From: Candidatus Kaiserbacteria bacterium
GTDB lineage: Bacteria; Patescibacteriota; Minisyncoccia; Phycocordibacterales; Phycocordibacteraceae
Length of the DNA stretch: 64,000 nucleotides
Reading direction: 5' to 3'
NCBI GenBank assembly: GCA_963699165.1
Contig: OY969413.1
Coordinates: 212,310 to 276,309, forward strand
The position numbers and the translations under genes were made by a program. This document shows, one piece after another, positions 503 through 62,156 of this stretch (positions are counted from its first letter, which is position 1; every line of letters begins with the position of its first letter). The notes beneath the pieces were generated by a model, which had not been told where the DNA came from, ran no database searches, and was given only the letters and a program-made list of their open reading frames with translations.

Positions 503-2184
503 AATGGCGCGGATTGAAATGGCGGGATCCGGAGATTGCCCCGGATGAAATATTTCTTGACTCGTCAAACACGACCGATTTTAACCGCGAACGCTTTGAA
601 GGACGGCTGGAGAAGCCGCTTTCGCGCCGGACTTTTTTCATTCTGACGGGAACGATTACCGCTCTTGTTGCGATACTCGCTGTCCGTTCGTGGCATTTGC
701 AGATCGCGAACGGTCCCGCCTTTGCGGAGCAGAGTGCGCACAACAGTTTGGAGGCCGTATCGATTTTTGCGCCGCGTGGTGTCATTACCGACATGCATGG
801 AACGGTAATCGCCGAAAATATTCAAAAACCGGACGGAACCGCTGAACGCGAATACCCCGTTCCGTCCCTGAGCAATATCATCGGCTATGTGTCGTATCCG
901 AAAAAGGACGCCAAGGGCGTGTACTACGATACAAACGAGACGGGCGTTACCGGTTTGGAAGCGCAGTACAATTCACTGCTCGCCGGAAGTAATGGACAGC
1001 TTTTGACCGAGACCGATGCGGTCGGAAACATTCATTCGCAAGGCACTGTCGTTCCCGCGAAAGAGGGAGGAACGCTTCAGTTGTCGATTGATGCGAATCT
1101 TGAAAAACTATTTGCGAAAGCCATTGCCGACACGGCCACGAATCAGCATTTCATCGCCGGCGCGGGCGTCATTATGGATGTGCACACGGGTGCCGTGCGC
1201 GCTATCGTTTCGTATCCGAGTTATGACTCAAACGTGATGTCGAACGGCGGTCCGTCCGATGCAATTGCCGCGTACAATACGAATATCGGACATCCGTTTC
1301 TCGACCATGCCGTGCAGGGCGTGTATGCGCCGGGTTCTATCGTCAAACCGTTCGTTGCGTACGGCGCGCTCTCCGACGGCATTATTACACCGGACACCAC
1401 TATCGACGACCCGGGTTTTTTGTCGCTGCCCGATCCGTATCATCCGGGCAAGAAATTTATTTACAAAGGATGGCGGGCGCTCGGACCCGTGAACGTGGAG
1501 AAGGCGATTGCATGGTCATCGGATATTTTCTTTTACACGGTCGGCGGTGGCAATCAGGGCCAAAAGGGTCTCGGCATCGACCGGCTGGATTATTGGTATC
1601 GGCAATTCGGTCTCGGGACGACGACCGGCATCGGCGTCGCGGGCGAGGCGGACGGACTTCTGCCGACGCCAGCATGGAAGCAGGCGACGTTCAAGGAGCC
1701 GTGGTATTTGGGCGACACGTTCTTTACGGCCATCGGGCAATATTCGATGCAGGTGACGCCGATACAAATGGCGCGAGCGATATCCGCGGTGGCAAACGGC
1801 GGAAAACTATTTACACCGACGCTGATTGCCGGACAAACGGCTCCGTATTCTACGGTGCCGGTTGACCCTGCGGCATTCAACGTGGTGCGGACCGGTATGC
1901 GCGAAGGCGTTACGACCGCGCTTGCGAGCGCCATCAACCTTCCGTATGTTTCCGTCGCCGCTAAAACGGGAACGGCGCAAACCGGCGTCAACAACCAATA
2001 TGACAACTCCTGGGTGGAAGGATTTTTTCCGTACGAAAATCCGCAGTATGCATTCGTGGTTGTGCTCGAACGCGGTCCCTCCGGCGCCGGCGAAGAGTCC
2101 GTAAACGTCATGCGGGAGTTGTTTGATTCGCTACATGCCGAGAATTCGCAGTATGTCGGGGGGATTGCGACGACGACTCCGTAG
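499..2184 (+). CDS. mrdA: Penicillin-binding protein 2 (peptidoglycan D,D-transpeptidase)
   Basis: 561 aa. N-terminal TM segment, SxxK motif (S-I-V-K), and KTGTA motif near the C-terminus. Immediately follows mreCD. Confidence 0.85.
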   Translation: MKWRGLKWRDPEIAPDEIFLDSSNTTDFNRERFEGRLEKPLSRRTFFILTGTITALVAILAVRSWHLQIANGPAFAEQSAHNSLEAVSIFAPRGVITDMHGTVIAENIQKPDGTAEREYPVPSLSNIIGYVSYPKKDAKGVYYDTNETGVTGLEAQYNSLLAGSNGQLLTETDAVGNIHSQGTVVPAKEGGTLQLSIDANLEKLFAKAIADTATNQHFIAGAGVIMDVHTGAVRAIVSYPSYDSNVMSNGGPSDAIAAYNTNIGHPFLDHAVQGVYAPGSIVKPFVAYGALSDGIITPDTTIDDPGFLSLPDPYHPGKKFIYKGWRALGPVNVEKAIAWSSDIFFYTVGGGNQGQKGLGIDRLDYWYRQFGLGTTTGIGVAGEADGLLPTPAWKQATFKEPWYLGDTFFTAIGQYSMQVTPIQMARAISAVANGGKLFTPTLIAGQTAPYSTVPVDPAAFNVVRTGMREGVTTALASAINLPYVSVAAKTGTAQTGVNNQYDNSWVEGFFPYENPQYAFVVVLERGPSGAGEESVNVMRELFDSLHAENSQYVGGIATTTP

Positions 2185-2755: not shown

Positions 2756-4675
2756 ATGGCATTGCTTGATACGGTGCGCGCAGAGAGAATCGCGAAAATC
2801 GCGCGCTTGAAAGAGGCGGGCTTGGAGGCATATCCGGCACGCACCAACCGCACGCACAGCATCGCGCAGTTTTTACAGAATCACGAATCCCTTCAAAAGA
2901 ATGCCGAAGAGGTTTCGCTCGGCGGCCGCATCCTTTCAATTCGAGAACACGGAGGATCTCTTTTCATAGATATTTTCGATGGCACGAAAGGACAGTGCTA
3001 CATACAGCGCGACAAGCTCGGCGAAGAATCCTTCAACCTCTTTAAAGACACGGTCGATACGGGCGACATTATTGAATTTCAAGGAATTGCGTTTACGACC
3101 AAGCGCGGCATGCCGTCGCTCGATGTTTTAACCTGGCGGATGCTCGCGAAGTCGTTGCGCCCATTGCCGGACGAATGGTTCGGCATCAAAGACGAAGACG
3201 AGCGCTTTCGAAAACGCTATCTGGATATTCTGCTCACGAAAGATCTCGCCGAGCGCATCCGTCGCCGCTCCGTTTTCTGGAACACGTTCCGTCAATTTCT
3301 TTTGGAGCGCGACTACATCGAAGTTGAAACGCCGGTTCTTGAGACGACGACCGGCGGGGCCGAAGCGCGGCCATTTTCGACGCATCACAACGCACTCGAC
3401 ATCGACGTGTATCTTCGCATCTCCGCGGGAGAATTATGGCAGAAACGGCTGATGGTGGCCGGTCTGCCAAAAGTATTTGAAATCGGGCGCATTTTCCGCA
3501 ATGAGGGTATGTCAGCGGAACACGCGCAGGACTACACCCAGCTCGAATTTTACGAAGCATTCAGCGACTATGAAGCCGGCATGGAAATGATTAAAGAGTT
3601 GTACCGGAAAGTGGCGCAGGAAGTTTTCGGCACACAGCAGTTTGACATCCGAGGCCACAAAGTCGACTTGGCGGGCGAGTGGCAGGTGTATGAATATGGA
3701 AAACTTCTTGAGGAAAGATTCGGTTTAAATCCGGTAACTGAGATTTACAGCAAGACGGGCCGAAGGGTGACTGAAGAAGATTTGAAAGCCATTTGCAAAG
3801 AAGCGGGTATCGGATACGAGGAGGGCGGGTTGAACATCGTGCGTACGGCAGACAATCTTTGGAAACTCATTCGCAAGGAAATTGCCGGTCCGGGATTTCT
3901 CATAGGCATTCCCGTTTCGATGGAGCCGCTTGCAAAGCGCGCGCAAGACGGCAAGACCGTCGAACGTTTTCAGGTACTCATTGCCGGAAGCGAAGTCGGG
4001 AAGGGTTTTAGCGAACTCAACGATCCGGTTGACCAGCGCGAGCGTTTTGAAAAACAGCAGGCGCTCCGCGACGCGGGCGATGAAGAAGCGCAGATGGCTG
4101 ACGAGGACTACGTCGAAGCGCTCGAATACGGGATGCCGCCTGCATTCGGCTTTGGCATCTCCGAGCGGCTGTTCAGTTTTCTCGAAGGTGTTTCGATTCG
4201 CGAAGGTCAAATCTTCCCGCTTTTACGGCCGCAGGAACACGTCGCAAAGAAGCATGTCGAAAAACAAAAAGCGGTCGTCGTCATACAGCGGAGCGGTCTC
4301 GAACCGTGGCAAATTTTAAATACGGTTGCGCATATTTCCGCAGAGTTTGGTGTGCGGGAAGGGAGAAGTCTCCTGTATCAAGACAGCCTAACGACAGCGG
4401 ACGGCACGCGTATTCCGCTCAACATCCAGCATCCCATCATGCTGAAAGAGGCTCCTTCAGTCGAAAGTATTAAAAAGCTTTTTCTTGCGGCGCAGGAGCA
4501 TAAACTTCAGGTCACCGCATTTACGCGCGAGATGATTGAAACGACTAATGATAAAAAAATAATTAAAGAAACGGCCGCGAAGGATTTTAACGATGTCGAA
4601 TTCCTCGGTGTTTTGCTGTTCGGTCCGGTTTCAGCCGTCGAGAAACTGACTGCTGAATTTTCTGCATACACCTAA
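2756..4675 (+). CDS. lysS: Lysyl-tRNA synthetase class II with ~130-aa C-terminal extension
   Basis: N-terminal OB anticodon-binding domain; class II motifs including IFRNEG and a motif-3-like GxGxGxxR region. At 639 aa it is about 130 aa longer than typical bacterial LysRS. Confidence 0.9.
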   Translation: MALLDTVRAERIAKIARLKEAGLEAYPARTNRTHSIAQFLQNHESLQKNAEEVSLGGRILSIREHGGSLFIDIFDGTKGQCYIQRDKLGEESFNLFKDTVDTGDIIEFQGIAFTTKRGMPSLDVLTWRMLAKSLRPLPDEWFGIKDEDERFRKRYLDILLTKDLAERIRRRSVFWNTFRQFLLERDYIEVETPVLETTTGGAEARPFSTHHNALDIDVYLRISAGELWQKRLMVAGLPKVFEIGRIFRNEGMSAEHAQDYTQLEFYEAFSDYEAGMEMIKELYRKVAQEVFGTQQFDIRGHKVDLAGEWQVYEYGKLLEERFGLNPVTEIYSKTGRRVTEEDLKAICKEAGIGYEEGGLNIVRTADNLWKLIRKEIAGPGFLIGIPVSMEPLAKRAQDGKTVERFQVLIAGSEVGKGFSELNDPVDQRERFEKQQALRDAGDEEAQMADEDYVEALEYGMPPAFGFGISERLFSFLEGVSIREGQIFPLLRPQEHVAKKHVEKQKAVVVIQRSGLEPWQILNTVAHISAEFGVREGRSLLYQDSLTTADGTRIPLNIQHPIMLKEAPSVESIKKLFLAAQEHKLQVTAFTREMIETTNDKKIIKETAAKDFNDVEFLGVLLFGPVSAVEKLTAEFSAYT

Positions 4676-6062: not shown

Positions 6063-6118
6063 GGGGTTTGGGTGCCATTGGTTTCCCATTAAGATACTCG
6101 TATATGAAGGATTGTTTG

Positions 6119-7162
6119 TCAATTCATTGTACGCGTCCAGTACTTTTGGCAGTCCCCGACGGTTAATGTACACACAATATACCGCAAGGGGGACACCATG
6201 CCGAGCGACTGGTGCGGGCGTTTGGTGTTGTACCAGATCAGCCAGTCGACAAGCTTCAGATTGAAGGAATGAATATCGTCCCGCAGCAGGCCCCGATTCA
6301 GCATGATGAAGTCCTCGGAGACGGTGCGATTGAATCGTTCGACGTGGGCATTCATCTTGGGAGTGCGGGGGCGGGTGTGAAAGTGCGTGAGCCCGAGTTC
6401 GGCACAGGCATCCTCGAAGTGTTTGGCGAACTCGCTCCCGTTGTCGGTCTGCAACTCGTCGATATCGAAGGGGCAAACCTCGATGACTCGGCGAAGGAAG
6501 TCGTCCGCGCTTCTCGACGAGTGGTTCGTATACGCGCCCGCAAAGGCGAACTTCCGCTCCACGTCCACTGCCGTGAGGACGTACCGCTTCACGCCGTCGA
6601 TGAAGCGGACGACGGTATCGAGCTCCATGCCGCGCTTGCCGGTGCGGCGAAGCTTGGTACGGCGTTTCTGCGGTGTTTCCGTGTGATTGCCCGTACGTGC
6701 GTGGAACGAGAGCCGGCTCTGCTGCGGGAGCAGACCGCGGTTCTTCAAATCCAGAATGACCCGCCCAACGTATGACTCCGACACGGAGTACCCTTCTTCG
6801 CGCAGGAGAACGGCAAGCTTTGCTTTCCCAAGCCGGGGATGCGCCTGTCGTTCGCGGATGATGAAATCCTCGACCTCGGGCAGAACAGTCCTCCTTCGAC
6901 GCGCCTTCGGCGCAGTGCTCTTCGGGTCAAGTGCATCAATGCGGCCCTCGTGGGCTTTGAGTTCCTCCTTCCAGCGATACAAGGTGCGCTCCGAGGTGCC
7001 AAAGGCGTCGTATGCGGCCTCCGTCCCGTGCATGTCCCAGAATCCCAATATCTTCACCCGTCTGTCGACTTCCTTTGGTTTCCGCATATGCCGCAATCGT
7101 ATCGTCCTTTCCCACATGCTCAACCAGCCCTTCGTACCCCTGAAATTGCTTCTGATGCGCAT
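6119..7162 (-). CDS. IS481-family DDE transposase (HTH + rve integrase core); ORF terminates in flanking DNA
   Basis: 347 aa with DDE/rve hallmarks (TDNGSEF, HTRPRTPKMNAHVERFNRT). The last in-IS codon is the final ACA of the element; the stop is supplied by flank DNA (MN* here). Confidence 0.85.
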   Translation of the reverse strand: MRIRSNFRGTKGWLSMWERTIRLRHMRKPKEVDRRVKILGFWDMHGTEAAYDAFGTSERTLYRWKEELKAHEGRIDALDPKSTAPKARRRRTVLPEVEDFIIRERQAHPRLGKAKLAVLLREEGYSVSESYVGRVILDLKNRGLLPQQSRLSFHARTGNHTETPQKRRTKLRRTGKRGMELDTVVRFIDGVKRYVLTAVDVERKFAFAGAYTNHSSRSADDFLRRVIEVCPFDIDELQTDNGSEFAKHFEDACAELGLTHFHTRPRTPKMNAHVERFNRTVSEDFIMLNRGLLRDDIHSFNLKLVDWLIWYNTKRPHQSLGMVSPLRYIVCTLTVGDCQKYWTRTMN

Positions 7163-7206
7163 ATATCCTCGGTTATGAGGACTGCCAAATGTATCTGAAC
7201 TTATGC
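6128..7206 (-). mobile_element. IS481-family insertion sequence, copy 1 of 3 (~1079 bp, imperfect ~28-bp terminal inverted repeats, no target duplication at this copy)
   Basis: Identical (one coding difference) to 22926..24004 and 61070..62148. Ends are TGTACGCGTCCAGTACTTTTGGCAGTCC ... GGACTGCCAAATGTATCTGAACTTATGC. Flanks ATTCAT / AGCCCT do not match. Confidence 0.85.
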
Positions 7207-7408
7207 AGCCCTTGAGAGAAATCGAAACTGTTTTGCCATAAAATATGGCGTACAGACTGGTTTTTATGGGAATCAAATTGCATTCGCGCATCATTGATTT
7301 GCCATATCCAATCTGCCTTTCGGCATATGCATTTGAAAAAACACGGTGCGCGGCACGTGCGTAGCTTTTCGCTGTAATACGTGTCTGTGGATAACGTCCT
7401 ATAGGGAA

Positions 7409-16000: not shown

Positions 16001-17085
16001 ACACCACTGGCTCATACAACTCCGCACAGGGTTTTAACGCCCTCTCCTCCAACACCACTGGCTCATACAACTTCGGACTTGGTTACCAGGCAGGCTATGG
16101 CGACGGCTCCAACGCCGACAACCAGTCGGTCATCGACAACTATATGACCTTCATAGGAACGTACTCGTCGCGCGACGCTTCGGTGGCTTCCACAACTGCG
16201 CTAAGCAAAAGCACAGCAATCGGATACAACGCGAAAGTGGGGTGCTCGAACTGCCTTGTGCTTGGTGGGACGGGTGCGGATGCGGTAAATGTCGGCATCG
16301 GGACGACGACGCCATACGCACGATTGATGGTTTGGGGACCGGACACCGCTTCCACTTCCGCCTTTGCGATTGTGAACAGCGCATCCACCACCGTCTTCTC
16401 AATCTTCGACAACGGCAACGCCACCTATTCCGGCTCCATCTTCCAATCGTCCGATGCACGACTAAAGTCCAACGTTACTCCGCTTGATGCCTCTTCTTCT
16501 CTTGCCGCCATCAACGGACTCACGCCTGTCTCATACAACCGTCTCGACCAGAACGACTCGGGTACGAACTTGGGCTTCATCGCGCAAGCCGTACAGAGCG
16601 TGTTCCCCGAACTCGTCTCCACCACCTCTCCCACGGTACTTACCCCGGGCGGCACCCTCACGGTCAACTATGTGGGACTCATCGCGCCTCTCGTGAAGGC
16701 CGTGCAGGCGCTTTCGGGGCAGGTGAGTGCGCTTGCCTCGACGGTGACGGGTTTTGCGCAGTCGTTTACTTCGCAGAATATTACGGCAAAACAGCAACTC
16801 TGTGTCGGCGATACCTGCGTCACTGAAAGCCAGTTGAAAACGCTTTTGCAAAATGCGGGGCAGGGGAGCGGACAATCCGCGGCCGCCGCAGCGGCGGCCG
16901 CGGGCTCGGCATCGGGAAATTCGCAAGACGCGGCCGCAGGCCAAATCAAAGTCGATTCGGCAAGTTCTACCGAACAGCAAACACCTGCTGATTCCACAGC
17001 GACTTCAGCTCCTGTGACGGGGACTACAACTTCGCTTGATATAATCTCACAGACGGATTCGTCAGTTTCAAACACTACTAACTAA
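13030..17085 (+). CDS. Giant secreted repeat protein (1351 aa): signal peptide, GIGTTSP-type fibre repeats, 17-aa NTTGSxNSAQGxxALYx beta-roll-like repeats in two duplicated blocks, C-terminal phage-tail-fibre-type intramolecular chaperone (peptidase S74-like, SDARLK) domain
   Basis: N-terminal MPSRRRFSTLPTLVLILSLAPLAAQA signal. SSDARLKSNVTPLD...LTPVSYNRLD...GFIAQAVQSVFPELV matches the self-cleaving chaperone of endosialidase/tail-fibre proteins (Ser ... Lys five residues later). Ala/Ser/Gly-rich C-terminal tail. Confidence 0.85.
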   Translation: MPSRRRFSTLPTLVLILSLAPLAAQAALYAPGATLDPACGPTDPNCGVATTTISGTITMNGSIIPSVANTYSLGTAQNTWKDVYVGPGSLYVNGQEVLYTDPSHNVNVSADVNQDLILQTSGTGDIQLNPSGTGGLILLKGNVQLSAGKTLRSSDGTPLQFSDGIQAGNLALQANKLAAANTNGSLEFASLGLGAVYVSHGNFGIGTTSPLAALAVSGGASIGSDYNFAAPSNSLIVEGLVGIGTTSPSQSLSVNGRVYSSGGFQFPDGTIQTTAAFGGGATSTLLSDSNTFSGLDSFTNASSNFAGTWQGKALSYFQTALGYTPYNATNPNNYIPLTALSAGTGISYNNTTGQITNTGITSNTGNWAGTWQTYSPASFQPAGAYATFGYPFPSGATTTALTIDGATFAAGSTGNVGIGTTSPTSPLQIGVDSFTTPDLLIGSGANVGNFISLSGNRGIIGVNPSSGQFSLTAGSGKAFAFYVNSTNAPETGTQALIVQSNGNVGIGNTSPSYKLDVSGFINTDQYSGYNQAGNTVLYASTTNNSLAIGASQAAAWMSASSTQWYSVAIGSGALATTPTSAGAQYNTAEGYQDLNHNTTGSYNSAQGANALYNNTTGSYNSAQGYKALYYNTTGSYNSAQGFYALQNNTTGSNNSAQGNSALHSNTTGSNNSAQGQAALYSNTSGNQNSAQGANSLSSNTTGSYNSAQGNSALYSNTTGNYNFGLGYQAGYGDGTNADNRSVIDNYMTFIGTYSSRDASVASTTALSKSIAIGYNAKVGCSNCLVLGGTGADAVNVGIGNVSPSYPLDVSGFINTDQYSGYKQAGNTVLYASTTNNSLAIGASSAAAWMAASSTNWYSVAIGSGALATTPTNASAQYNTAEGYQALNHNTTGSNNSAQGYKALNANTTGYNNSAQGLNALLSNTTGSWNVAQGVNSLSHNTTGSNNSAQGYQALYFNTTGQQNSAQGVSALYANTTGSYNSAQGKGALYSNTTGSYNSAQGFNALSSNTTGSYNFGLGYQAGYGDGSNADNQSVIDNYMTFIGTYSSRDASVASTTALSKSTAIGYNAKVGCSNCLVLGGTGADAVNVGIGTTTPYARLMVWGPDTASTSAFAIVNSASTTVFSIFDNGNATYSGSIFQSSDARLKSNVTPLDASSSLAAINGLTPVSYNRLDQNDSGTNLGFIAQAVQSVFPELVSTTSPTVLTPGGTLTVNYVGLIAPLVKAVQALSGQVSALASTVTGFAQSFTSQNITAKQQLCVGDTCVTESQLKTLLQNAGQGSGQSAAAAAAAAGSASGNSQDAAAGQIKVDSASSTEQQTPADSTATSAPVTGTTTSLDIISQTDSSVSNTTN
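14520..16300 (+). repeat. Tandem direct duplication of ~880 bp (two ~294-aa blocks, ~85-90% identical) inside the giant gene, each containing ~9 copies of a 51-bp (17-aa) repeat
   Basis: Blocks ~14520-15410 and ~15410-16300 align nearly base for base (NVGIGNTSPSYKLDVSGFINTDQYSGY... vs NVGIGNVSPSYPLDVSGFINTDQYSGY...). Both end in ...CSNCLVLGGTGADAVNVGIG. Confidence 0.8.
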
Positions 17086-45821: not shown

Positions 45822-46805
45822 TTATGCTACGCCGATTGCTTTGCGGACAATCTCCATTTTTGCTTCGCTCACCGCTCTCGCTTCCGTCTTGCCTTTCGCA
45901 AGAACATCCTCGACGATTCCGGCATCATTTTTCAGTTCCTCGTATTTCGAACGAATCGGGGCAAAATATCGGTCAAGGTCTTCGATTAGCGCTTCCTTAA
46001 GCGCTTTGTATTTGCCCGCGTTACTACCATATATGGTAGTAAGTTCCTCCTCGCTTCGAACGAGCTTGTGAATATCAAAAACATTTTTTGGTCGATGAGA
46101 TTGGTCCCTTCCCATCGCTTCCGCAAATGAGTCCGTGACAATGCTCATGACGCACTTGGCGAGTTCGTCGCGCGATGCAAAAAGCGGAATGACATTGTTG
46201 TAACTTTTGCTCATTTTTTGTCCATCGGTGCCCGGTACAACCGCAACCCCGGGCATAATGTACGGCTCCGGCAGCTTAAAAACGTCCTCTATGAACACGC
46301 GATTAAATTTTTCCGCGGTGTCGCGCGCGTACTCCACGTGCTGTTTTTGATCCTGCCCTACCGGAACGACGGCAGCATCGTACAGCAGAATGTCCGCCGC
46401 CATTAAGAGCGGATAGTTAAACGTGCCGACGCTGATTTCTTTGTTTTTCGCTTCGGCGTCTTTGAATGCGTGCGCGCGCATGAGATACGGCATCGTGGTG
46501 ATGGAATCGAAAATCCAGCACAGTTCCGTATGCGCCGGGACATCCGATTGCTTAAACAGGACAATATCTTCAGGGTCGAGTCCGCATGCGAGGTATGCGA
46601 GCACCAACTCGCGGGTGCGCCTCTTCATCTCCTCCGCGTCCTGCATCGTGTTGAGGGCATGATAGTCGGCAACGAAAATGAACGGGCGATATTTTCCGCT
46701 CTTCGTAAGTTCGACCTGTTGGCGAATGGCGCCGAAATAGTTGCCGATGTGCAAATCGCCGGTCGGTTTTATTCCGGAAACGAGTATCGGTTTCGAGGAT
46801 GTCAT
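45822..46805 (-). CDS. trpS: Tryptophanyl-tRNA synthetase
   Basis: HIGN (HIGH) and KMSKS motifs; 327 aa. Confidence 0.92.
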   Translation of the reverse strand: MTSSKPILVSGIKPTGDLHIGNYFGAIRQQVELTKSGKYRPFIFVADYHALNTMQDAEEMKRRTRELVLAYLACGLDPEDIVLFKQSDVPAHTELCWIFDSITTMPYLMRAHAFKDAEAKNKEISVGTFNYPLLMAADILLYDAAVVPVGQDQKQHVEYARDTAEKFNRVFIEDVFKLPEPYIMPGVAVVPGTDGQKMSKSYNNVIPLFASRDELAKCVMSIVTDSFAEAMGRDQSHRPKNVFDIHKLVRSEEELTTIYGSNAGKYKALKEALIEDLDRYFAPIRSKYEELKNDAGIVEDVLAKGKTEARAVSEAKMEIVRKAIGVA

Positions 46806-48026: not shown

Positions 48027-48488
48027 TTAAGTCCCGATGAACGGCTTCGTTTGCAACGCATCGCGCAAGAGCCGCGATACCGAATGCAGTTCCGACTCCG
48101 GACTTTCGTTTCTGCTGCCGGGACGATACAAAAAACGCCGTGGCTCGTATTCGGTTATGCCGGTGTCGCCTTCTTTGCGAGGAAGCACGTGCAAGTGAAA
48201 ATGCGGAACGGATTGCCCCGCTAGTTTGCCTTCGTTCCAAGCATAATTGAAACCTTCTGCGCCAAACGCAATTCGCAAAGCATCATGTATTTTTGACTGC
48301 AGGTCAAAGATTGCAATTCTTTCTTCGGGTGTGAGCTCTTCAAATGTTGCCACGCAACGGATGGGTGCGACGAGTGTGTGTCCCGGAACAATCGGAATGT
48401 TTGTAAGGAATGCCCATGCAAGTTCATTGCGACAAATTTCGCGCTTCCTAATTGCAGGAATCTCACAGAATGCGCAGCGTATATCCAT
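48027..48488 (-). CDS. HIT-family (histidine triad) hydrolase
   Basis: 153 aa from MDIRCAFCEI...; HFHLHVLPR histidine triad. The six-frame ORF extends spuriously upstream across the tRNA region. Confidence 0.8.
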   Translation of the reverse strand: MDIRCAFCEIPAIRKREICRNELAWAFLTNIPIVPGHTLVAPIRCVATFEELTPEERIAIFDLQSKIHDALRIAFGAEGFNYAWNEGKLAGQSVPHFHLHVLPRKEGDTGITEYEPRRFLYRPGSRNESPESELHSVSRLLRDALQTKPFIGT

Positions 48489-48640
48489 GTTGAATGTTAT
48501 GGCATGAGTATACCAAGAACGAGGGAAAATAAGTGCTCCGGGTTGGATTCGCTTCTCGCTCTGCTGAGCTCGAAACCTCCGCCCCCTCCTCGGGGGCTGC
48601 GGCCCGCGGTTCGAATCCTTCCCGTCCGTACATGAAGCAC

Positions 48641-48675
48641 AGAAAAGGTCGGATAAAAAATCCGACCTTTTCTGG
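48641..48675 (-). terminator. Rho-independent terminator downstream of tRNA-Tyr
   Basis: AAAAGGTCGGAT-loop-ATCCGACCTTTT with T-run on the minus strand. Confidence 0.6.
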
Positions 48676-48680
48676 CTTAG

Positions 48681-48764
48681 TGCGCCGGGTTGGATTCGAA
48701 CCAACGTAGGACTATGTCCGACAGGTTTACAGCCTGTTGTAATTGACCACTCTACCACCGACGC
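48681..48764 (-). tRNA. tRNA-Tyr (anticodon GTA) with long variable arm
   Basis: Manual cloverleaf on the minus strand: acceptor GCGTCGG/CCGGCGC, anticodon stem ACAGG/CCTGT with loop CTGTAAA, variable arm CGGAC-ata-GTCC, T-arm GTTGG-TTCGAAT-CCAAC, discriminator A. Confidence 0.85.
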
Positions 48765-48792
48765 AATGCGTCCACTATAACGGATTTTCGCG

Positions 48793-50046
48793 TTATTTCA
48801 AAACCAGAATGAGTACGCCCTGTTTTCCTTTTCGGACAAGTGCGTATCCGCCGGAAAGGTCGCCAGAATATATTTTTTGGTCGGGACTTTCGATTGTCTG
48901 GCCGGAAAGAGTGATGCCCTTCCCTTCGATGAGGCGGCGAGCATCGGATTTTGACGACGCAAGGCCGCCCGCGACGAGCGCTTCAGCGAGCGAGTATCCG
49001 TCCTGGATATCGCTCCTCGTAATAGCGACTGTCGGCGCTTCCGCAAGAGTGACTGCGAGGGCGTCGCGCGACAGTTCGCTAAACGGAGTCGCGCCAAAAA
49101 GCGCATCCGTCGCGGCTGCGACTTGCGCCGTCGCGGCGGGACCGTGGATGATTTCCGTTGCAAGGCGCGCGAGCGTTTCCTGGGCCTGCCGTTCTCCCGG
49201 ATTCCTGCGATGCAATTCCATAAGTGCATCGATTTCAACCGGCGGCAAGAACGTGTAGACGCGAAGATACTTCTCGATATTCGCATCGGGAAGATTAATC
49301 CAAAATTGATAGAACTGGAACGGCGATGTTTTTTTAGGATTCAGCCAAATGGCATTCCCTTCGCTCTTGCCGAATTTTTTGCCGGCAGAGTCGGTCACGA
49401 GCGGAATGGTAAAGGCGAACACGTCTTCACCGAGTTTTTTGTGAATGAGGTCGACGCCCGAAAGGATGTTTGTCCACTGATCGCTCGCGCCGATTTGCAG
49501 ATCGCAGCCGAATTTTTGGTGGAGCGTGAGGTAGTCGAATCCCTGAAGCAAAGCGTAGGTGAATTCGGTATACGAAATGCTTTCATCCGGGGCGTCAAGC
49601 CGCTTTTTAATGATGTCGCGCTTTATCAAATCGTTCACCGTAAAATATTTTCCGATATCGCGTAAAAATAACAGCAACTGTACGTTCGACAGCCAGTCCG
49701 CGTTGTTGACCATTTTAAATGGCACGCCGCCGAGAATCTTTTTCAGTTCTGATTGCAGCGCGCGCGTATTTGCGGCAACGGTTTTTTCGTCCAGCAGGAC
49801 CCGCTCGCCTTTTTCGCGCGGGTCGCCGATTTGTCCCGTCGCTCCGCCGACCAGAAAAACAAGCGTATGTCCCGCCTGCGCGAGCCGCTTCATGAGGAGG
49901 ATGACGGCAAGGTTGCCGATTTGCATCGAATCGGCGGTGGGGTCAATGCCGAGATATACCGTTCGCGGTTTCTCGAGAATCTTCTCAATCGGCGCAGAGG
50001 TGTGCTCCAGCAATCCGCGCGCTTTTAATTCTTCGGCAAGCGTCAT
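48793..50046 (-). CDS. tyrS: Tyrosyl-tRNA synthetase (with C-terminal S4-like domain)
   Basis: HIGH-region (PTADSMQIGN), KFGKS (KMSKS), C-terminal S4 fold. Confidence 0.92.
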   Translation of the reverse strand: MTLAEELKARGLLEHTSAPIEKILEKPRTVYLGIDPTADSMQIGNLAVILLMKRLAQAGHTLVFLVGGATGQIGDPREKGERVLLDEKTVAANTRALQSELKKILGGVPFKMVNNADWLSNVQLLLFLRDIGKYFTVNDLIKRDIIKKRLDAPDESISYTEFTYALLQGFDYLTLHQKFGCDLQIGASDQWTNILSGVDLIHKKLGEDVFAFTIPLVTDSAGKKFGKSEGNAIWLNPKKTSPFQFYQFWINLPDANIEKYLRVYTFLPPVEIDALMELHRRNPGERQAQETLARLATEIIHGPAATAQVAAATDALFGATPFSELSRDALAVTLAEAPTVAITRSDIQDGYSLAEALVAGGLASSKSDARRLIEGKGITLSGQTIESPDQKIYSGDLSGGYALVRKGKQGVLILVLK

Positions 50047-61022: not shown

Positions 61023-61060
61023 GCAGAGCCATATCAATGTAGCAGGTGTCGCTAAAATCG

Positions 61061-62104
61061 TCAAATAGTTGTACGCGTCCAGTACTTTTGGCAGTCCCCG
61101 ACGGTTAATGTACACACAATATACCGCAAGGGGGACACCATGCCGAGCGACTGGTGCGGGCGTTTGGTGTTGTACCAGATCAGCCAGTCGACAAGCTTCA
61201 GATTGAAGGAATGAATATCGTCCCGCAGCAGGCCCCGATTCAGCATGATGAAGTCCTCGGAGACGGTGCGATTGAATCGTTCGACGTGGGCATTCATCTT
61301 GGGAGTGCGGGGGCGGGTGTGAAAGTGCGTGAGCCCGAGTTCGGCACAGGCATCCTCGAAGTGTTTGGCGAACTCGCTCCCGTTGTCGGTCTGCAACTCG
61401 TCGATATCGAAGGGGCAAACCTCGATGACTCGGCGAAGGAAGTCGTCCGCGCTTCTCGACGAGTGGTTCGTATACGCGCCCGCAAAGGCGAACTTCCGCT
61501 CCACATCCACTGCCGTGAGGACGTACCGCTTCACGCCGTCGATGAAGCGGACGACGGTATCGAGCTCCATGCCGCGCTTGCCGGTGCGGCGAAGCTTGGT
61601 ACGGCGTTTCTGCGGTGTTTCCGTGTGATTGCCCGTACGTGCGTGGAACGAGAGCCGGCTCTGCTGCGGGAGCAGACCGCGGTTCTTCAAATCCAGAATG
61701 ACCCGCCCAACGTATGACTCCGACACGGAGTGCCCTTCTTCGCGCAGGAGAACGGCAAGCTTTGCTTTCCCAAGCCGGGGATGCGCCTGTCGTTCGCGGA
61801 TGATGAAATCCTCGACCTCGGGCAGAACAGTCCTCCTTCGACGCGCCTTCGGCGCAGTGCTCTTCGGGTCAAGTGCATCAATGCGGCCCTCGTGGGCTTT
61901 GAGTTCCTCCTTCCAGCGATACAAGGTGCGCTCCGAGGTGCCAAAGGCGTCGTATGCGGCCTCCGTCCCGTGCATGTCCCAGAATCCCAATATCTTCACC
62001 CGTCTGTCGACTTCCTTTGGTTTCCGCATATGCCGCAATCGTATCGTCCTTTCCCACATGCTCAACCAGCCCTTCGTACCCCTGAAATTGCTTCTGATGC
62101 GCAT
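61061..62104 (-). CDS. IS481-family DDE transposase (copy 3); stop codon supplied by flank DNA (TI*)
   Basis: 347-aa ORF; one conservative difference from copy 1 (REEGH vs REEGY). Confidence 0.85.
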   Translation of the reverse strand: MRIRSNFRGTKGWLSMWERTIRLRHMRKPKEVDRRVKILGFWDMHGTEAAYDAFGTSERTLYRWKEELKAHEGRIDALDPKSTAPKARRRRTVLPEVEDFIIRERQAHPRLGKAKLAVLLREEGHSVSESYVGRVILDLKNRGLLPQQSRLSFHARTGNHTETPQKRRTKLRRTGKRGMELDTVVRFIDGVKRYVLTAVDVERKFAFAGAYTNHSSRSADDFLRRVIEVCPFDIDELQTDNGSEFAKHFEDACAELGLTHFHTRPRTPKMNAHVERFNRTVSEDFIMLNRGLLRDDIHSFNLKLVDWLIWYNTKRPHQSLGMVSPLRYIVCTLTVGDCQKYWTRTTI

Positions 62105-62148
62105 ATATCCTCGGTTATGAGGACTGCCAAATGTATCTGAACTTATGC
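61070..62148 (-). mobile_element. IS481-family insertion sequence, copy 3 of 3, flanked by 6-bp target duplication AATAGT; inserted 48 nt upstream of infA
   Basis: Identical to copies 1 and 2 apart from one transposase codon (H in copy 3 vs Y in copies 1 and 2). Flank repeats at 61064-61069 and 62149-62154. Confidence 0.9.
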
Positions 62149-62156
62149 AATAGTCC

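Follow-up and report, generated by a model that had tools for sequence, protein, structure and literature searches.

Why should a transfer RNA (tRNA) gene be followed, less than 150 nucleotides (nt) away, by a second copy of its own 3' end? The question is raised by tRNA-Tyr in a stretch of 64,000 nt of a Candidatus Kaiserbacteria genome (contig OY969413.1, positions 212,310 to 276,309), which we call the window and whose own numbering is used below. The answer we defend, with a probability of roughly 0.6, is that the minus strand at 48533-48640 holds one small non-coding hairpin insertion element, placed after tRNA-Tyr and its terminator, and that its architecture makes it a degenerate member of a tRNA-linked superfamily. 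These structured elements are common in Kaiserbacteria-like Paceibacteria, and the superfamily is apparently undescribed. The locus, read on the minus strand, consists of the following features.

48680-48764, minus strand: tRNA-Tyr(GTA), found by ARAGORN; 48681-48764 according to Rfam (RF00005, 58.8 bits).
48640-48674, minus strand: spacer or terminator hairpin between tRNA-Tyr and the element, found by an inverted-repeat search.
48533-48640, minus strand: the whole Tyr-linked element, 108 nt, GUGCU...GAGCAC, delimited by RNA folding.
48608-48624, minus strand: its 5' (inverted) arm CGGGAAGGAUUCGAACC, found by a repeat search; it contains the "orphan T loop" discussed below.
48552-48607, minus strand: its core, three short hairpins in the RNA fold.
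48533-48551, minus strand: its 3' arm CGAATCCAACCCGGAGCAC, a direct copy of the tRNA-Tyr end, 18/19 identical.

The initial annotation of this locus had described a tRNA-Tyr on the minus strand, a clean terminator, a near-copy of the tRNA end and, between these, a perfect T-loop string that could not be folded into a cloverleaf. The tRNA is found by both ARAGORN and Rfam. The hairpin that follows it is also there, with a perfect 15-bp stem (48640-48654/48660-48674), the loop TTTTT and a U-rich 3' side; a simple terminator scan leaves it uncalled because the T run sits within the long stem. The near-copy is equally real: positions 48532-48551 and 48679-48698 are identical at 19/20 positions and lie 147 nt apart. 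The 19-mer CGAATCCAACCCGGCGCAC, with at most three mismatches, occurs at these two sites and nowhere else in the 64 kb, against an expectation of 0.08. What is copied is the last 24 nt or so of the tRNA: the T loop, CCAAC (the 3' strand of the T stem), CCGGCGC (the 3' strand of the acceptor), A73 and a C.

The T-loop string needs a correction. The sequence GGTTCGAATCC does have a second copy, at 48608-48618, in addition to the one in tRNA-Tyr (two occurrences in the window, 0.02 expected); but this second copy is on the plus strand, opposite the tRNA, and reads GGATTCGAACC / GGAUUCGAACC on the tRNA strand. It is no separate orphan either. It is complementary to the downstream tRNA-end copy (48612-48624/48539-48551, 13 nt, 85%), and also to the T arm of tRNA-Tyr itself (17 nt, 88%): the two features noticed separately therefore belong together, as arms of a single hairpin element, the 5' arm reading CGGGAAGGAUUCG on the tRNA strand and the near-copy at 48533-48551 closing the inverted repeat. 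A third tRNA, which might have claimed the T loop, is not predicted by ARAGORN, whose predictions in the window are tRNA-Glu and tRNA-Tyr; in Rfam, at E<=10 over 48350-48900, there is no tRNA, tmRNA or tRNA-like match except tRNA-Tyr. No open reading frame (ORF) lies between the direct repeats.

Folded as RNA, the Tyr element reaches -52.4 kcal/mol (z -3.0), with a second fold at -48.3 kcal/mol (z -3.2). An outer stem GUGCU/AGCAC is followed by CGGG/CCCG, an AA/AA mismatch and GGAUUCG/CGAAUCC, and encloses three small GC-rich hairpins. The 5' arm, read in reverse complement, agrees exactly with 17 nt, GGTTCGAATCCTTCCCG, of a CCTTC-type tRNA-Tyr found in about 35 related genomes (blastn-short, 17/17), unlike the resident tRNA-Tyr, which is of the CCAAC type. 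The AA/AA mismatch arises because the inverted segment derives from this CCTTC allele. We read the Tyr element as an old, shortened and decaying copy whose inverted arm came from a different tRNA-Tyr allele, and whose distal arm was homogenised with, or derived from, the resident tRNA-Tyr.

The window holds a second tRNA with copies of its own 3' end, as had been observed from the start. Two copies of the end of tRNA-Glu(CTC) lie downstream of it, at 12653-12668 (15/16) and 12832-12843 (12/12), and each is paired with an inverted copy. Two elements of like architecture thus follow this tRNA; they represent two kinds of core, which we call type A and type B.

12421-12493, plus strand: tRNA-Glu(CTC), found by ARAGORN and Rfam.
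12494-12519, plus strand: spacer hairpin, inverted repeat 12485-12501/12513-12529.
12520-12670, plus strand: Glu element 1, a full-length type A element; 142.7 bits and E 7e-33 with the covariance model R1 described below, fold z -5.3.
12671-12700, plus strand: second spacer hairpin, inverted repeat 12659-12676/12693-12710, whose stem takes in the copied acceptor 3' strand.
12701-12853, plus strand: Glu element 2, type B-like; fold -75.4 kcal/mol, z -5.1.

The stem of the first spacer hairpin likewise reaches into the acceptor 3' strand, here that of tRNA-Glu. In both elements a 5' arm containing (G)ACGGGGAAUCGAA faces a 3' arm that copies the tRNA-Glu end. Glu element 1 runs from an inverted acceptor segment (a') through a hairpin (H2), an inverted T-stem segment with inverted T loop (t') and a core of three helices (P1-P3) to the direct copy of the tRNA-Glu end; this distal copy, GTGAGGTCAC, is that of an L135-type tRNA-Glu, the resident tRNA-Glu having GTGGGGTCAC (L and a number denote our related loci). 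Glu element 2 has the segment a', UGUGACCCCA, a perfect complement of the tRNA-Glu end, the hairpin H2, and arms ACGGGGAAUCG/CGAUUCCCCGU that match at 11/11 positions (12735-12745/12832-12842); its core is different and its distal copy is decayed. It scores weakly with R1 (14.3 bits, E 0.11) and is found by a type B profile built from L012 and L022 (nhmmer E 0.01). About 180 nt past the Glu elements begins an ORF of 1351 amino acids (13030-17085, plus strand) with a Peptidase_S74 domain, the endosialidase chaperone of tail-fibre-like proteins; it may be phage- or island-derived cargo beside tRNA-Glu.

How general is this design? An exact 19-mer from the type A core gathered 74 metagenome loci, of which about 66 are real and about 8 are chance matches within coding-like sequence; the covariance model R1 confirms 71 matches in the 74 loci. 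In all, type A is represented by about 70 copies in genomes and metagenomes of the candidate phyla radiation (CPR); they stand behind 13 or more tRNA species, without exception on the strand of the tRNA. In 36 loci the 19-mer is preceded, on the same strand and at a distance of 53-77 nt, by the end of a tRNA; the tRNAs concerned are Arg(TCG, GCG, CCG, TCT), Glu(TTC, CTC), Gln(CTG), Ser(TGA, GCT), Tyr, Val(CAC) and Gly(TCC). Many other copies are truncated where their contig stops, part of a tRNA being still recognisable, and a few are orphans (the second copy of L150, and L159). At L171 a group I intron (1423-1661, minus strand, Rfam 58.5 bits) lies inside a tRNA that ARAGORN overlooked, and a type A element follows.

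The layout of type A is regular. A spacer comes first, either an 18-nt module ACGAGC..AGCGAGGA or an AAA-hairpin-TTT module, the latter often a good terminator. Next is a', the reverse complement of the acceptor 3' strand, the discriminator and C74; then AGC and the hairpin H2 with its loop CUGGGAG; then t', the reverse complement of the T-stem 3' strand and of the T loop (GGAWUCGAA). The core follows: P1 with a variable tip, GUGUACUGA, P2 with the loop UGUAA, UCGAWAAG, and P3 (GCG-UAAU-CGC). The element ends with GG and a direct copy of the tRNA from T60 to C74; in the superfamily as a whole, the direct copy covers the last 16-24 nt of the tRNA. Segment a' is complementary to the 3' strand of the tRNA and is not a copy of its 5' strand, as the sequences GCGCCGG vs GCGUCGG (Tyr) and GACCCCA vs GGCCUCA (Glu) show. 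T-loop position 59 is matched in 28/28 of the 5' arms, and in 27/28 copies of the 3' UCGAW.

Set against this layout, the Tyr element lies on the tRNA strand, after a tRNA and a spacer hairpin; it ends in a direct copy of the tRNA end, and an internal inverted copy pairs with that direct copy and closes a structured core. Its GUGCU is a remnant of a', pairing with the distal AGCAC; a recognisable H2 was not found in it. Its 5' flank, TGTACGGACGGGAAGGATTCGAA, closely resembles the flank TGTAGCGGAGGGAAGGATTCGAA of the element found at the same locus in L012.

Is the type A structure real? We aligned 28 distinct elements from 12 tRNA species (alignment A1). For these RNAalifold predicts six helices with 47 pairs in total, and compensatory changes are seen at 28 of the pairs; the model R1 likewise comprises six helices and 47 pairs. 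Of the cells in the pairing columns 97.1% can pair, a figure that falls to 79.5% when the alignment is shuffled and to about 40% when the partners are slid. Covariation scores 0.452 versus 0.127, with 0/500 shuffles as high. The covariation of H2, P2, P3 and the tip of P1 is independent of the tRNA. Loop and junction nucleotides are invariant, and single sequences fold with z between -4.4 and -7.6. Among roughly 1300 helix cells, about 1220 are Watson-Crick pairs, 21 are G.U, to which one invariant U.G position is added, and 10 are A.C. These wobble pairs give a weak preference for the tRNA-sense strand. Wobble content is unusually low for an RNA, and a single-stranded DNA (ssDNA) form is possible. 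Mini-hairpin motifs GCGNAGC and GCGAAAGC, with GNA and GAAA loops closed by C-G, recur in spacers, in P1 tips and in nested inserts (for instance 12500-12512 in the window, and in L117, L132 and L150).

A scan based on the tyrosyl-tRNA synthetase (TyrRS) placed the window among Kaiserbacteria-like bacteria (Paceibacterota, CPR) and yielded 67 related loci, with TyrRS 62-81% identical, and tRNA-Tyr is beside tyrS in 64 of them. A downstream same-sense copy of the tRNA-Tyr end is present in 8/64 (L005, L012, L019, L022, L046, L053, L060, L066); two loci (L004, L045) hold cut or half elements; and three (L008, L028, L051) keep remnants that comprise the spacer, the acceptor-strand complement and part of the next hairpin, L060 and L045 being counted among the loci with remnants as well. 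An element or a remnant thus occupies 13/64 sites, in agreement with the early suggestion that the site is variably occupied, and the remaining sites show no spacer, a' or other element feature. The elements of L004, L005, L019, L045, L053 and L066 are of type A (nhmmer and R1); L004, L005, L019, L053 and L066 have a conserved core in common with Glu element 1, and different arms. What had been predicted to occupy the site, a large island, is seen, bounded by copies of the tRNA-Tyr end, in none of the 64 related loci within about 4 kb.

Occupied genomes are scattered over the TyrRS similarity tree, and their nearest neighbours are mostly empty. At occupied sites an A-rich spacer directly follows the tRNA, which has no encoded CCA; CA, completing CCA, follows the distal copy in 13/28 copies. 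In L150 and L060 the distal copy is followed by CATACAA(G/A)GGAC, a motif that stands after tRNA-Tyr itself at several empty sites. The comparison with empty-site flanks is limited to such motif-level likeness (CATACAAGGGAC...) because the flanks are too diverged for blastn. In L022 the duplication spans the whole 61-nt tRNA end and the terminator. The closest pair of an occupied and an empty site, L012 and L013 (TyrRS 96% identical), yields no insertion boundaries because the regions downstream are unrelated.

The tRNA-Tyr locus has other peculiarities. In L005, L006, L047, L055 and L061 the tRNA-Tyr is opposite in orientation to tyrS, and in other genomes it has moved by 0.4-2.4 kb; the locus is prone to rearrangement. 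The type B2 carriers L012 (5283-5367) and L022 (3882-3965) have tRNA-Tyr genes with odd anticodon stems, GCACG/CGTGC and CATCG/CGATG, and D arms that are also unusual vs all other relatives. L013, in spite of its closeness to L012, has an ordinary tRNA-Tyr; the tRNA of L012 and L022 may therefore have been exchanged along with the element.

The elements also occur in tandem. Behind the tRNA-Glu of the window type A precedes type B, and in L105 type B precedes type A. The type B elements (L012, L022, L105, L119 and Glu element 2) have end modules in common, and R1 gives 41.7 bits to L119 and 32 bits to L105. Different tRNA species have cores in common: those of L152, behind Arg(GCG), and L169, behind Glu(CTC), are 98% identical, the core of the window's Glu element and that of L113, behind Arg(TCG), are 96% identical, and one 249-kb contig carries two different core variants. 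The arms of L012 are of the CCTTC type within a CCTCC-type genome; since several arms match foreign tRNA alleles (L012, Glu element 1, the Tyr 5' arm), arms must be inherited with the element. Each element ends by repeating, in direct orientation, the 3' end of the tRNA, and a direct repeat therefore flanks the insert, in the manner of attL and attR; the insert also closes on itself through the inverted copy. The duplicated tRNA ends are, as first proposed, real and non-random marks of DNA inserted at the 3' end of a tRNA.

Smaller insertions are seen within the elements themselves. An identical 68-nt insert, flanked by a CTGTA duplication, is nested in the P2 loop of the type A elements of L149 and L165, and a hairpin module of about 63 nt (GCCGAGAUUUUAAAGGAGCGAAGCGACUAUUAAAAUCC...) stands between GUGUAC and UGA in L122, L126, L154, L158 and L172.

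How might such a cassette come and go? Recombination at the 3' end of the tRNA could account for both gain and loss. Homology on both sides would be offered by the duplicated end and by the body of the tRNA, which is highly conserved, so that a relative with the same tRNA might acquire the cassette by a double crossover or through a trans-acting recombinase; if the two direct copies recombined, or replication slipped from one to the other, the cassette would be deleted. By pairing with the extra tRNA end, in a read-through transcript or in ssDNA, the inverted copy would mask it: the element would then be self-contained, and the real tRNA could fold without interference. Taken by itself, this mechanism of recombination and masking is a tentative proposal, which we think somewhat likelier to be wrong than right, and the arms for at least 13 tRNAs keep guide-based or templated mechanisms alive. 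One could go further, and see in the family mobile nucleic acids of a new kind, programmable and without a protein, or else the guide of a trans-acting system. A conserved core would carry exchangeable segments, complementary to and identical with the last 24 nt or so of a chosen tRNA gene; the target would be selected by base pairing, by analogy with the exon- and intron-binding sites (EBS/IBS) of group II introns, the guides of IS200/IS605, omega-RNA and bridge-RNA; and the arms for at least 13 tRNAs would be retargeted guides, not passive duplications. We consider this proposal doubtful, as something to keep in mind more than to expect.

Several observations weigh against our account of the Tyr locus or of its mechanism. 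For recombination of the RecA type, a homology of 18-24 nt is short. Cores up to 98% identical occur behind different tRNAs with wholly different arms, and therefore a simple homology-driven spread at one tRNA leaves the retargeting of arms unexplained. At many loci a good terminator separates tRNA and element, which speaks against efficient co-transcription. No recombinase, reverse transcriptase or HUH enzyme was identified near the elements, whose neighbourhoods were clustered and not fully annotated, and no excised or circular form was found. Presence/absence polymorphism at the strain level was not seen in the one comparison contig, L177, which is the only other contig with the same HIT protein and is identical across the locus. 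The choice between RNA and ssDNA, and even strand specificity, is weakly supported because the helices are nearly all Watson-Crick. The set in which arms were compared had been pre-filtered for good distal copies, and for that reason the finding of a best-matching tRNA-end copy was dropped as evidence. As to the Tyr element itself, its core has no homologue in any fetched locus (blastn, nhmmer) except the identical copy in L177; the element has no match to R1 at E<=10 with filters off, and none to the type B profile. The local similarity of its core to L012 is marginal (score 26 vs 16.4 +/- 2.8, with 3/300 shuffles as good), as is that to L119b. Since no model or homology search connects it to the family, its membership rests on its architecture and on its L012-like 5' flank.

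Could the elements be cellular RNAs instead? They might be functional non-coding RNAs in tRNA transcription units, whose closing helix mimics a tRNA minihelix: the copy of the acceptor stem would stack on that of the T stem, H2 would replace the D and anticodon arms, the core would carry the function, and the RNA could be cut out and completed by RNase P, RNase Z and the CCA-adding enzyme. The strong covariation and the invariant loop and junction nucleotides are what one would expect of such an RNA, as are the constant use of the tRNA strand, the frequent position between tRNA genes of one cluster (L106, L108, L113, L119, L131), the wobbles that favour the tRNA-sense strand (G.U 21 vs A.C 10, with the invariant U.G) and the many distal copies ending in ..ACCA; the RtT RNA of E. 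coli, to which we return, is a precedent. However, the elements are patchy even among close relatives (20% of tRNA-Tyr sites), and they occur truncated, in tandem, nested and as orphans. A terminator stands ahead of them at many loci, and no promoter of their own was seen. The closing helix has a blunt end, unlike a tRNA acceptor end, because a' also pairs with the discriminator and C74; G.U pairs are very few for an RNA family; and there is no functional reason for a mimic to equal the neighbouring tRNA. On balance we find a cellular function unlikely, without regarding it as far-fetched.

A second alternative retains mobility and changes its agent. The elements would be ssDNA hairpin transposons, akin to REPINs or to the palindrome-associated transposable elements (PATEs) of the IS200/IS605 group, or other guide-dependent mobile elements, moved by a trans-acting HUH transposase or recombinase, with the pairing of a' and t' selecting both the target and the 3' end of the element. 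This would explain why insertion takes place exactly behind the tRNA and why the 3' end of the element is identical with the target. Target and 3' terminus are indeed the same, and both are complementary to an internal segment beside hairpins; the near-perfect Watson-Crick helices, the recurring GCGNAGC and GCGAAAGC motifs, the smaller nested elements with their 5-bp duplication and the one core with arms for at least 13 tRNAs point the same way. So does the strict sense-strand orientation, which for co-directional genes corresponds to the lagging-strand template. Yet no Y1/HUH transposase or TnpB was seen (again in neighbourhoods clustered and not fully annotated), the known guides of IS200/IS605 measure 4-5 nt vs 9-24 nt here, and the acquisition of new guides is left unexplained; moreover, arms that match foreign tRNA alleles show inheritance, and no re-templating at each insertion. 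We judge this improbable.

A third alternative concerns the Tyr copy by itself, which could be local debris that rearrangements left behind, an inverted and a direct partial duplication of tRNA-Tyr unrelated to types A and B; decayed tRNA duplication had been the lesser of the two explanations offered for the locus, and for the Tyr copy on its own it is still a candidate. In its favour are the absence of a homologue of the Tyr core in our data, the 5' arm that is a perfect 17-nt piece of another tRNA-Tyr allele, and the inversions of tRNA-Tyr relative to tyrS in the five loci named above. Debris, though, would hardly keep the order and spacing of the family (terminator, complement of the acceptor end, inverted T arm, GC-rich core, direct copy), nor a 5' flank like that of L012, and two further elements of the same design are present in the window: we give debris a small chance, slightly below that of an ssDNA transposon.

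The initial annotation had preferred empty att scars, left after integrase-bearing islands or prophages entered tRNA 3' ends, the classical integration sites, and were later excised or deleted; a direct repeat of the tRNA 3' end with its distal copy beside a native-looking flank, a tandem array behind tRNA-Glu that resembles att accretion and a phage-like S74-domain gene after that array would all suit it, but it is the least credible of the explanations, since an island that excises precisely leaves behind a single site and no duplicate, the 110-190 nt or so between the repeats are the insert itself, structured and non-coding, conserved and covarying at about 70 loci, no island-occupied variant is found among the 64 tRNA-Tyr loci and no integrase, tyrosine or serine, beside tRNA-Tyr or tRNA-Glu, viral contigs and phage genomes contain no match, and the inverted copy and the single core with arms for at least 13 tRNAs are left unexplained.

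Known families were also considered in turn. The elements have no match in Rfam 15, and around either tRNA there is none at E<=10. A third tRNA, tmRNA or tRNA-like RNA is ruled out by ARAGORN and Rfam; known ribozymes and riboswitches, T-boxes included, have no Rfam match, and this is also the case for the hammerhead, suggested by a CUGA...GAAA likeness, of which the core residues are absent by eye. RtT RNA (RF00391) has no match at the gathering threshold in the window, nor at E<=10 at either tRNA. P2 (CUGUAAG) is not an anticodon arm: its C-G pair leaves a 5-nt loop, and the loop is also found behind tRNAs other than Tyr. A viral or phage origin was rejected on 0 type A matches in viral contigs and no blastn match in phage genomes; 22 type B-pattern matches are all chance, in coding DNA. 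TIGR arrays consist of tandem units of about 36 nt, containing two 9-nt spacers, next to a Tas gene with a Nop domain (PMC12045711); the units here measure 110-190 nt, with tRNA-matching segments of 14-24 nt that are complementary to each other, and TIGR-Tas arrays were set aside. The literature we searched contains no description of such elements.

The only transposases of the window are IS481-like copies, far from the tRNAs and with unrelated ends. This insertion sequence, of about 1090 bp, is present in two 99.5%-identical copies (6118-7207 and 61060-62149) that encode a DDE transposase with HTH_32, rve and rve_3 domains, and has the subterminal inverted repeat TTTGGCAGTCC; the ORF of the first copy is lengthened to 432 amino acids by fusion with its flank. 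Since the ends TTTGGCAGTCC are unrelated to the arms of the elements, these are not miniature inverted-repeat transposable elements (MITEs) of the IS481-like element. No recurrent gene family beside the elements exceeds 7/66 loci, the top one being a ParB-like DNA methylase upstream of 5 copies. This methyltransferase with a ParB-like domain lies 0.5-1.4 kb upstream, on the opposite strand, in L109, L121, L122, L144 and L172, whose elements have no detectable upstream tRNA; a second methylase paralogue is present in L121, L122 and L144. In L121 and L122 a conserved stretch of about 97 nt between methylase and element has a tRNA-like 3' end and no cloverleaf fold.

The surroundings of tRNA-Tyr complete the picture of the locus: the genes around it are tyrS, a HIT-family gene that starts at 48488, and an ABC transporter. 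Two further features lie on its upstream side.

48793-50046, minus strand: the tyrS ORF (TyrRS), with its stop codon 28 nt upstream of tRNA-Tyr.
48774-48801, minus strand: candidate tRNA-Tyr promoter TTGAAA-16-TATAGT, proposed from a consensus scan; it overlaps the tyrS stop.

Directly past the Tyr element, at 48507-48515 of the minus strand and 19 nt 5' of the HIT start codon, is an extended -10-like sequence, TGGTATACT. Similar boxes, TGGTATNNT, are found at the tRNA genes of the window and of related loci; they lie about 10 nt ahead of position +1, a distance that implies very short leaders for the tRNAs. The linkage of tyrS and tRNA-Tyr is kept in 64/67 related genomes. The window is rich in aminoacyl-tRNA synthetase genes (2756-4675, plus strand; 45822-46805 and 48793-50046, minus strand): respectively a class II D/K/N enzyme fused to DUF2000, a TrpRS-like class Ib enzyme, and TyrRS with its cognate tRNA directly after it.

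What follows if the insertion-element account holds? The flagged Tyr feature is real but degenerate, and the interest lies in the family that it reveals. In these ultra-small bacteria of the CPR, tRNA genes would commonly carry an undescribed hitch-hiker cassette, structured, non-coding and 110-190 nt long, and selfish or regulatory elements would persist in extremely reduced genomes. For annotation, such copies should be taken neither as pseudo-tRNAs nor as evidence of past prophages. One core with arms for at least 13 tRNAs calls for a templating or guide process, or for an unusually effective homology-driven spread. The model R1 provides an RNA or ssDNA structure, supported by covariation, for experimental testing.

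It remains to compare these elements with systems already known. The closest in appearance are the RtT, or 178-bp, repeats 3' of E. coli tyrT, each of which ends in the last 19 nt or so of tRNA-Tyr, and whose RNA is released from the tRNA transcript: there as here, repeated non-coding units directly follow a tRNA gene and end in a copy of its end. As far as is known, RtT lacks an inverted tRNA-end copy and belongs, in enterobacteria, to a single tRNA; the elements studied here follow at least 13 species of tRNA, with arms that fit each of them. The att duplications made by prophages, integrative and conjugative elements (ICEs) and integrase-less elements of the cis-mobilizable (CIME) type share with ours the direct repeat of a tRNA 3' end, the intact tRNA, the displaced copy beside the old flank, tandem accretion and patchy occupancy. 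They differ in that the insert is here 110-190 nt long and non-coding, with no integrase seen and an extra inverted copy split by a hairpin, and in that one core goes with many tRNA ends, whereas one integrase normally serves one att sequence. Like REPINs, PATEs and MITEs, the elements are small, abundant, non-coding and intergenic, modular, with long near-perfect hairpins and nested insertions; unlike them, they have terminal inverted repeats that vary and equal the adjacent tRNA end, a strict association with tRNA 3' ends in one orientation, and no RAYT or TnpA seen. The primer-binding site of retroviruses and long-terminal-repeat (LTR) retrotransposons is 18-24 nt long and exactly complementary to the 3' end of a specific tRNA, into the T loop, which is also what a' and t' complement; in our case H2 splits the complement, a direct copy accompanies it, the element is a neighbour of the tRNA gene itself, and no reverse transcriptase was seen. 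RtT, att duplications and REPIN or PATE elements thus each share some of these traits, and in none of them is a conserved structured core joined to two copies, one inverted and one direct, of the upstream tRNA end.

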